Positions 4,733 to 59,790 of a DNA stretch of 64,000 nucleotides are shown here, piece after piece. The stretch is taken from NCBI RefSeq assembly GCF_003991155.1, contig NZ_CP031293.1; one strand, given 5' to 3'. The DNA is from Escherichia coli (GTDB taxonomy: Bacteria; Pseudomonadota; Gammaproteobacteria; Enterobacterales; Enterobacteriaceae). How positions within the stretch are numbered: the first letter of the stretch is position 1; each line of letters opens with the position of its first letter. The notes under the pieces were generated by a model, which did not search any database, had not been told where the DNA came from, and was given only the letters and a program-made list of their open reading frames with translations. A program made the position numbers and the translations under genes.

Positions 4733-4785
4733 GAAATAAATGGGGCCGCTAAATGTCCCCTAAGATTGTGGGCAAACGCAAAACT

Positions 4786-4884
4786 GCCTGATGCGCTACG
4801 CTTATCAGGCCTACACCGCTCCTGCAATACATTGAATTCTTGCGGTTTCGTAGGCCGGATAAGGCGGTCACGCCGCATCCGGCA
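4786..4884. repeat. REP (repetitive extragenic palindromic) cluster, two units
   Basis: GCCTGATGCGCTACGCTTATCAGGCCTAC (4786-4814) and GTAGGCCGGATAAGGCGGTCACGCCGCATCCGGCA (4850-4884) in the ybaM-mscK convergent intergenic region. Confidence 0.85.
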
Positions 4885-4943
4885 TGAACAACGCGCACTT
4901 TGTCAGTAATCTCGGGGCAACTAAATGTCGCCCCCTTTGGTTA

Positions 4944-17775: not shown

Positions 17776-17816
17776 ATTTTTGGGCTGACGGCACGCCGCA
17801 CAGCCCGTCACGCTAC

Positions 17817-18860: not shown

Positions 18861-18890
18861 CCCTCTCCGGGCGGAGAGGGTTAACTGCGC

Positions 18891-19680: not shown

Positions 19681-20541
19681 ATGAGTCAGGCGCTAAAAAA
19701 TTTACTGACATTGTTAAATCTGGAAAAAATTGAGGAAGGACTCTTTCGCGGCCAGAGTGAAGATTTAGGTTTACGCCAGGTGTTTGGCGGCCAGGTCGTG
19801 GGTCAGGCCTTGTATGCTGCAAAAGAGACCGTCCCTGAAGAGCGGCTGGTACATTCGTTTCACAGCTACTTTCTTCGCCCAGGTGATAGTAAGAAGCCGA
19901 TTATTTATGATGTCGAAACGCTGCGTGACGGTAACAGCTTCAGCGCCCGCCGGGTTGCTGCTATTCAAAACGGCAAACCGATTTTTTATATGACTGCCTC
20001 TTTCCAGGCACCAGAAGCGGGTTTCGAACATCAAAAAACAATGCCGTCCGCGCCAGCGCCTGATGGCCTGCCTTCGGAAACGCAAATCGCCCAATCGCTG
20101 GCGCACCTGCTGCCGCCAGTGCTGAAAGATAAATTCATCTGCGATCGTCCGCTTGAAGTCCGTCCGGTGGAGTTTCATAACCCACTGAAAGGGCACGTCG
20201 CAGAACCGCATCGTCAGGTGTGGATCCGCGCAAATGGTAGCGTGCCGGATGATCTGCGCGTTCATCAGTATCTGCTCGGTTACGCTTCTGATCTTAACTT
20301 CCTGCCGGTAGCTCTACAGCCGCACGGCATCGGTTTTCTCGAACCAGGAATTCAGATAGCGACCATCGACCATTCCATGTGGTTCCATCGCCCGTTTAAT
20401 TTGAATGAATGGCTGCTGTATAGCGTGGAGAGCACCTCGGCGTCCAGCGCACGCGGCTTTGTGCGCGGTGAGTTTTATACTCAGGACGGCGTGCTGGTTG
20501 CCTCGACCGTTCAGGAAGGGGTAATGCGTAATCACAATTAA
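19681..20541 (+). CDS. tesB: Acyl-CoA thioesterase II
   Basis: ORF 19597..20541; canonical start [47 protein letters not shown] at ATG 19681 (286 aa). Confidence 0.93.
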
Positions 20542-20580
20542 AAAAATAGCCGGAGGTGAAAACCGTCCGGCTGTTTTTTG
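20541..20580. terminator. Bidirectional intrinsic terminator between convergent tesB and amtB
   Basis: AAAAAAATAGCCGGAGGTGAAAACCGTCCGGCTGTTTTTTG: stem AGCCGGA/TCCGGCT flanked by an A-tract and a T-tract. Confidence 0.8.
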
Positions 20581-30002: not shown

Positions 30003-30032
30003 TCGCCGGATGCGGCTTGAGCATCCGGCACC
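30003..30032. repeat. REP-like palindromic unit downstream of queC
   Basis: GTCGCCGGATGCGGCTTGAGCATCCGGCACC; GCCGGATGC / GCATCCGGC arms. Confidence 0.7.
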
Positions 30033-30440: not shown

Positions 30441-30493
30441 AGCGCAATAACCTTACGTTGTTTTTATAAAAACTGTTATAAGTACAGAGGTCA

Positions 30494-59748: not shown

Positions 59749-59754
59749 GTATGC

Positions 59755-59790
59755 AGGCCTGATGAGACGTGACAAGCGTCACATCAGGCA
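59755..59790. repeat. REP-like palindromic unit between yajO and pgpA (convergent)
   Basis: AGGCCTGATGAGACGTGACAAGCGTCACATCAGGCA; CCTGATG / CATCAGG arms. Confidence 0.7.

Follow-up and report, generated by a model that had tools for sequence, protein, structure and literature searches.

REP and BIME repeats between convergent genes in a 64-kb stretch of the Escherichia coli chromosome

REP and BIME repeats have been on record since the 1980s as elements at gene 3′ ends in E. coli. Published descriptions distinguish three REP types in this species, y (35 nt), z1 (29 nt) and z2 (37 nt), each preceded by GTAG, carrying an AA/GC bulge and combined in pairs as y-z1 or y-z2. Around 60% of REPs genome-wide sit between convergent genes, a REP is present at ~30% of the convergent junctions in E. 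coli, and the convergent gene pairs that carry one are more highly expressed genome-wide. REPs have been reported as partly Rho-dependent terminators and as exonuclease blocks, with stabilisation of the upstream mRNA; genome-wide data indicate that their effects vary widely, with no general effect on mRNA half-life. According to a citing paper, ribosomes stall and trans-translation is set off when a stop codon has a REP within 15 nt (Liang et al. 2015), and IHF binds to RIBs located at transcription-unit 3′ ends (Boccard & Prentki 1993, likewise through a citing paper). The E. coli TnpA-REP tolerates no mutation of the GTAG motif.

For strain MG1655, the supplement of a recent preprint (Harris et al. 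2026) places REP43 between ybaM and mscK (489960-490057), REP41 between fadM and queC, REP39 between thiI and yajL, and REP38 between pgpA and yajO. The full-length RNA mapping in the same supplement has REP38, 39, 41 and 42 overlapping bidirectional terminators in both log and stationary phase. An in vitro screen for Rho binding yielded regions that overlap REP41 and REP43 of this strain or adjoin them.

We compared these systems with a window of 64,000 nucleotides of E. coli chromosome running from recR to nrdR, the MG1655 counterpart of which extends from ~494.5 kb down to 433 kb, in reversed orientation. The two sequences are collinear save for three differences (a 2275-bp islet, an absent 126-bp element and a 12-bp insertion). 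The initial annotation had listed five REP or REP-like sites, each between convergent gene ends. Inspection of the sequence located all five where they had been reported, with offsets of 1-4 nt, and the flanking genes, named from the annotation of a collinear genome, were convergent at 5/5 loci:

4786-4884: between rsmS (+) and mscK (-), spacer of 211 nt
30003-30032: between queC (+) and fadM (-), spacer of 51 nt
51748-51835: between yajR (+) and yajQ (-), spacer of 127 nt
53984-54026: between yajL (+) and thiI (-), spacer of 53 nt
59755-59790: between yajO (+) and pgpA (-), spacer of 53 nt

Convergent junctions represent 9 of the 62 gene junctions of the window and hold all five REP loci (hypergeometric P = 2e-5), which agrees with the published genome-wide preference. 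All units are extragenic, the sole overlap being that of a GTAG motif (53980-53983) with a stop codon. This codon is the TAG of yajL (53981-53983), where the repeat motif and the gene end share bases. The MG1655 orthologues are nearly identical in sequence to the sites of the window. Because the MG1655 RefSeq annotation carries no REP features in the two regions looked at, REP names were taken from the preprint supplement: the counterparts are REP43 (rsmS/mscK), REP41 (queC/fadM), REP39 (yajL/thiI) and REP38 (yajO/pgpA), and the yajR/yajQ element is probably REP40, an assignment made from number order alone.

REP identity was tested independently with a covariance model comprising the outer stem, the bulge and the inner stem. 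A training region of 250 kb of MG1655, outside the region studied here, yielded 45 GTAG-anchored units, and the 24 distinct canonical sequences among them were used to build the model, with which the window was scanned with filters off. The five loci hold seven units, five of them significant by this model and two REP-like only. They are given below with the linker of the first pair; the types (y, z1, z2) were assigned from length and pairing:

4786-4814, - strand: REP unit, 47.9 bits, E = 4e-10; short T-type, GTAGGCCTGATAAGCGTAGCGCATCAGGC, 29 nt, z1 by length, left half of a BIME-1 (REP43)
4815-4849, no strand: L-type linker, 35 nt, between both units of this BIME-1
4850-4883, + strand: REP unit, 55.2 bits, E = 6e-12; G-type, GTAGGCCGGATAAGGCGGTCACGCCGCATCCGGC, 34 nt, assigned to y, right half of the same BIME-1
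30005-30031, - strand: REP-like unit, 10.3 bits, E = 1.3; the hairpin itself, GCCGGATGC-GGCTTGA-GCATCCGGC, spans 30005-30029 (no strand) and corresponds to MG1655 REP41; no GTAG, no bulge, single copy, z = -3.25
51748-51776, - strand: REP unit, 35.0 bits, E = 8e-7; short T-type with two stem substitutions, left half of a decayed BIME-1
51801-51834, + strand: REP unit, 21.2 bits, E = 2e-3; degenerate G-type, GTAGGCCGAATCAGGCGTTCATGCCGCATCTGAC, GTAG kept, two outer-stem pairs broken, bulge reading CA
53980-54012, + strand: REP-like unit, 13.8 bits, E = 0.18; within a REP39-like unit at 53980-54025 (+ strand), GTAG at 53980-53983, stem GTCGGATGCG/CGCATCCGAC at 53985-54012, z = -3.06
59753-59789, + strand: REP unit, 29.8 bits, E = 2e-5; long T-type, z2-like, corresponding to MG1655 REP38, GCAG for GTAG, one A.A mismatch, z = -3.8

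Run on K-12, the same model scores canonical units at 42-58 bits and a decayed tail at 21-38 bits, with noise from ~16 bits; the score of 30005-30031 lies in the noise range. The GTAG motif lies directly 5′ of the palindrome in four units (4814-4786 and 51776-51748 on the - strand, 4850-4883 and 51801-51834 on the + strand) and is separated from the stem by one extra base at 53980-54012; it is absent at 59753 and at 30005-30029. The AA/GC bulge is present in both 4786-4883 units and in 51748-51776, is down to the single mismatch at 59753-59789, and has given way to perfect stems at 30005-30029 and 53985-54012. The doublet at 4786-4883 and the unit at 51748-51776 share GTAG, the 7-bp outer stem, the AA/GC bulge and the inner stem with the y, z1 and z2 units of E. 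coli. The other sites differ from the family by the GCAG of 59753-59789 and, for the hairpins at 30005-30029 and 53980-54025, by the lack of a bulge, a single copy and scores below those of the canonical model.

Copy number was then taken across 5426 complete genomes, in a search that needs ~20 matching bases at that database size and would therefore miss diverged relatives. The rsmS/mscK region (4786-4883) matched a median of 18 places per genome, the yajR/yajQ element (51748-51834) at least 22 places per genome with a median of at least 40, and the yajO/pgpA unit (59753-59789) a median of 17. These three are thus multi-copy and extragenic like the family. The queC/fadM (30005-30029) and yajL/thiI (53980-54025) hairpins were found at their own locus only (median 1 per genome, in 5424/5426 genomes). 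The BIME linker by itself gave no detectable repetition in this search (median 1 place per genome); divergence of the L motif is too great for copies to be counted in this way.

All REP and REP-like hairpins fold better than shuffled controls (z -3.1 to -4.8). Exact REP outer stems of the 7+7 form number 50 in 313 kb of K-12, against 0.1 expected by chance, and the bulge signature was missing in only 3 of these 50, namely REP21 and the orthologues of 30005-30029 and 59753-59789 in K-12. The two weak units carry exact REP outer stems (GCCGGAT..ATCCGGC and GTCGGAT..ATCCGAC); even these two hairpins are not random sequence. All five sites belong to the REP/BIME repeat family of E. coli or derive from it. 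Two other detectors were rejected. The short consensus GTAGGCCKGAT with up to 2 mismatches gave 36 matches against 21.5 expected and was too noisy, and the longest exact match to canonical units was indecisive for 30005-30029 and 53980-54025, since matches of 12-13 nt turn up by chance in a sequence of 64 kb.

The two units at 4786-4883 lie inverted around the linker (z1 on the - strand, 35 nt, y on the + strand), with their GTAG ends facing inward. The linker includes an IHF-like site at 4825-4837, which reads ATTCAATGTATTG on the - strand, one mismatch from the consensus WATCAANNNNTTR. The 4786-4814 unit is identical to 7 K-12 units outside the region, the 4850-4883 unit has two mismatches to the K-12 REP16 sequence, and the alignment of the whole element with the unrelated K-12 REP37 runs from flank to flank through the linker. 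The element has the canonical BIME-1 / RIB architecture, as in the described BIME-1/RIB/RIP elements, with inverted z1-type and y-type units and a putative IHF site between them.

The element at 51748-51834 aligns with the 4786-4883 BIME and with K-12 REP37 save for a deletion of 11 nt in the linker (51777-51800), the very nucleotides that would carry the IHF-like site. It differs in this respect from BIME-1/RIB/RIP elements, as it does in the decay of its units, and it is a decayed BIME-1, substituted in both units and deprived of its IHF-like site. Both elements are also alike to REPIN/REPtron systems in being inverted GTAG REP doublets, and the rayT gene of K-12 is flanked by the same unit type as the doublets of the window. 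However, no rayT lies within the 64-kb window. Across the complete E. coli genomes, rayT was found in 3574/5426 at the sensitivity of megablast, and REP copies were found in all genomes.

The three single hairpins (30005-30029, 53980-54025 and 59753-59789) almost fill their 51-53-nt spacers. Counted from the upstream stop codon, they start at -4 to 14 nt, and 10-24 nt separate their ends from the opposing one. At 30005-30029, a 7-nt loop separates a 3′ arm equal to that of a y unit from a 5′ arm that has GC where a REP has AA, which makes the stem perfect. At yajL/thiI, a second hairpin (53998-54025) overlaps the first, the middle arm being common to both. The tetranucleotide that precedes the yajO/pgpA unit is GCAG in the window and CCAG in MG1655. 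As no change of GTAG is tolerated by TnpA-REP, the units at 59753-59789 and 30005-30029 would be immobile and not substrates of this enzyme.

One further REP annotated in MG1655, REPt42, was missing from the initial list:

20540-20579, no strand: REPt42, A-tract, hairpin (20548-20572) and T-tract, between tesB and amtB, z = -5.6

REPt42 gave no match to the canonical REP model in the window scan and is a bidirectional intrinsic terminator of textbook form; in the Harris et al. 2026 preprint it is called a coincidental Rho-independent terminator. The convergent junctions pdeB/ybaA and ybaZ/ybaY (17776-17816 and 18861-18890), which have no annotated REP, carry inverted repeats that read as hairpins, and the supplement of that preprint maps a bidirectional terminator of MG1655 to the ybaZ/ybaY hairpin (AACCCTCTCCGGGCGGAGAGGGTT). 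Each of the core convergent junctions of the window therefore has a hairpin-like element, supplied by REP or REP-like units at 5/8 of them, or at 6/8 with REPt42.

Identity, copy number, location, hairpin stability and population distribution were determined here directly. Taken together with the published MG1655 data, from which function is drawn, they make it very probable that the REP hairpins are 3′-end elements, acting as bidirectional terminators and/or as protectors of RNA 3′ ends. Each REP site would be transcribed into the 3′ end of one or both convergent genes, and its GC-rich hairpin would stop or attenuate RNA polymerase arriving from either side and block 3′-to-5′ exonucleases, so that one element would serve both genes. 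In the preprint supplement, the MG1655 orthologues of the three single hairpins and of 20540-20579 overlap termination sites on both strands, like bidirectional terminators. An A-tract and T-tract typical of intrinsic terminators are seen only at 20540-20579; the others have no U-runs and may need Rho or may mainly block exonucleases. The three single hairpins would be fixed bidirectional terminators, and might slow translation termination too, because they start no more than 14 nt after the upstream stop codon. The doublet at 4786-4883, given its intact GTAG motifs, AA/GC bulge and IHF-like site, may remain a target for IHF binding and for cleavage by the REP-associated transposase RayT.

For the two BIMEs, a competitor of a 3′-end role is that 4786-4883 and 51748-51834 are selfish insertions, mobilised by RayT, tolerated between convergent genes because they do least harm there, and without host function. 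We regard this as possible, though on balance unlikely. It draws on the population distribution of the rsmS/mscK locus, where the spacer is full length in only 3880/5426 genomes and the BIME is missing from ~28% of them. The O157:H7 and ST131 genomes examined have instead a 38-nt spacer with one terminator (A-tract, hairpin and T-tract) that serves both genes, and no BIME. In the window, the BIME has a hairpin on each side:

4742-4760, + strand: rsmS-proximal hairpin copy, weak fold, z = -0.6
4914-4932, + strand: mscK-proximal hairpin, z = -2.6, orthologous to MG1655 489902-489933, a mapped bidirectional terminator

According to the supplement of Harris et al. 2026, the terminator mapped at rsmS/mscK in MG1655 is this hairpin adjoining mscK and not the BIME. 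The flanking terminator and the ~28% of genomes without the element make a host function of the rsmS/mscK BIME doubtful. The decay of the 51748-51834 element and the REPs that flank rayT in K-12 also suit a selfish origin. However, the 4786-4883 units are near-perfect consensus copies, which suggests recent origin or selection, a Rho-binding region abuts REP43, REP-bearing convergent pairs are the more highly expressed ones, and rayT itself is confined to the genomes counted above.

The hairpins that flank the BIME are 84% identical to each other and make up a direct repeat of 19 nt, with starts 172 nt apart. The allele of the window is 170 nt longer than the BIME-less O157:H7/ST131 allele, where a single copy of the hairpin is present. 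An insertion with duplication of the hairpin would account for this pattern, and so would a deletion between the direct repeats. That the locus preserves the footprint of a BIME insertion, with the hairpin as duplicated target, as opposed to a later deletion between the repeats, seems to us improbable; if true, it would supply both a concrete target and a footprint of in vivo insertion by REP/BIME elements, the mechanism of which is not fully established. In E. coli ETEC4067, an IS200C-family element was observed in the BIME-less rsmS/mscK allele, adjoining the terminator hairpin.

A different objection concerns the hairpins at 30005-30029 and 53980-54025, which, together with REPt42, could be ordinary locus-specific bidirectional terminators that never belonged to the mobile REP family. 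Their single copy per genome, their E values (1.3 and 0.18, and no match for REPt42), the lack of the AA/GC bulge in both and of GTAG in 30005-30029 would all be expected of such hairpins. Moreover, exact 12-13-mer matches to REP units arise by chance in a 64-kb window, and pdeB/ybaA and ybaZ/ybaY carry unrelated hairpins, one of which (ybaZ/ybaY) is a mapped terminator. Against this stand the exact 7+7 REP outer stems of both hairpins, so rare by chance, their 3′ arms matching canonical units over 12-13 nt, the GTAG preceding 53980-54025, and the MG1655 annotation, which names both as REP41 and REP39. We therefore consider a terminator-only origin fairly unlikely, a little more so than the selfish origin of the BIMEs. 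A milder reading, related to that of the insertion footprint and likewise held to be improbable, takes the three single hairpins as former REPs, fixed as terminators after loss of GTAG and 'repair' of the bulge to a perfect stem.

The largest difference between the window and MG1655 is the islet:

48083-50357, no strand: accessory islet with a TacA-family antitoxin, a GNAT toxin and a Sel1/TPR-repeat gene (frameshifted); no REP

The islet occupies 2275 bp where MG1655 has 95 bp, is carried by 1367/5426 complete E. coli genomes (25%) and has a GC content of 0.32-0.47 against ~0.52 in its flanks. On these three grounds, it is truly accessory. The initial annotation had also held that no REP lies in 48081-50367 and had seen in this a sign of separate origin. 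The absence itself was borne out, the best model match there scoring 8.2 bits (E = 4.6) with no REP-like palindrome, and so was the accessory nature of the segment, through the counts and GC content; the absence of REPs lends it no support. At ~0.08 REP loci per kb, 0.18 would be expected in 2.3 kb, with a probability of ~0.83 of finding none, and this makes the absence uninformative, saying almost nothing on the origin of the islet. The islet contains a single convergent junction. Nor are REPs a clean marker of core DNA, as had been implied, the rsmS/mscK BIME being itself polymorphic and the CP4-6 cryptic prophage of K-12 carrying a canonical REP pair between mmuM and afuC. That REP presence marks core and REP absence foreign DNA, hence a separate origin of the islet, is accordingly very hard to credit, since its one agreement with the data, an islet that is both accessory and devoid of REPs, is what chance alone would mostly give, and REPs are both polymorphic and present in a prophage.

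Several other features were noted in and around these differences. The Sel1/TPR gene of the islet contains a perfect 22-nt inverted repeat with a 26-nt spacer (49413-49482). Strain 120899 has ~100 nt in place of the CCGGAAGAC of the window, a sequence reverse-complementary to the right arm of this repeat, and the replacement looks like a template-switch (quasi-palindrome) deletion. The change frameshifts the gene into two ORFs on the - strand (49404-50021 and 49117-49398). In the dxs-yajO spacer, MG1655 (438150-438275) and strain 120899 have a 126-bp element at a site that is empty in the window (58758/58759), so that a second repeat family shows presence/absence polymorphism; we take this element, with the core ...GTGAAGCCCCAGGAGCTTACATAAGTAAGTGACTGGGGTGAACG..., to be an ERIC/IRU-like repeat. 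Compared with both MG1655 and strain 120899, the fadM-ybaV spacer of the window holds a 12-bp insertion (TTTTATAAAAAC, ~30462-30473).

The REP/BIME sites of the window are real but ordinary and already known, these loci having been annotated in MG1655. For the reading of E. coli genomes, the lesson is one of method: the absence of REPs from a 2-kb segment is no evidence of foreign origin, which presence/absence counts and base composition decide.
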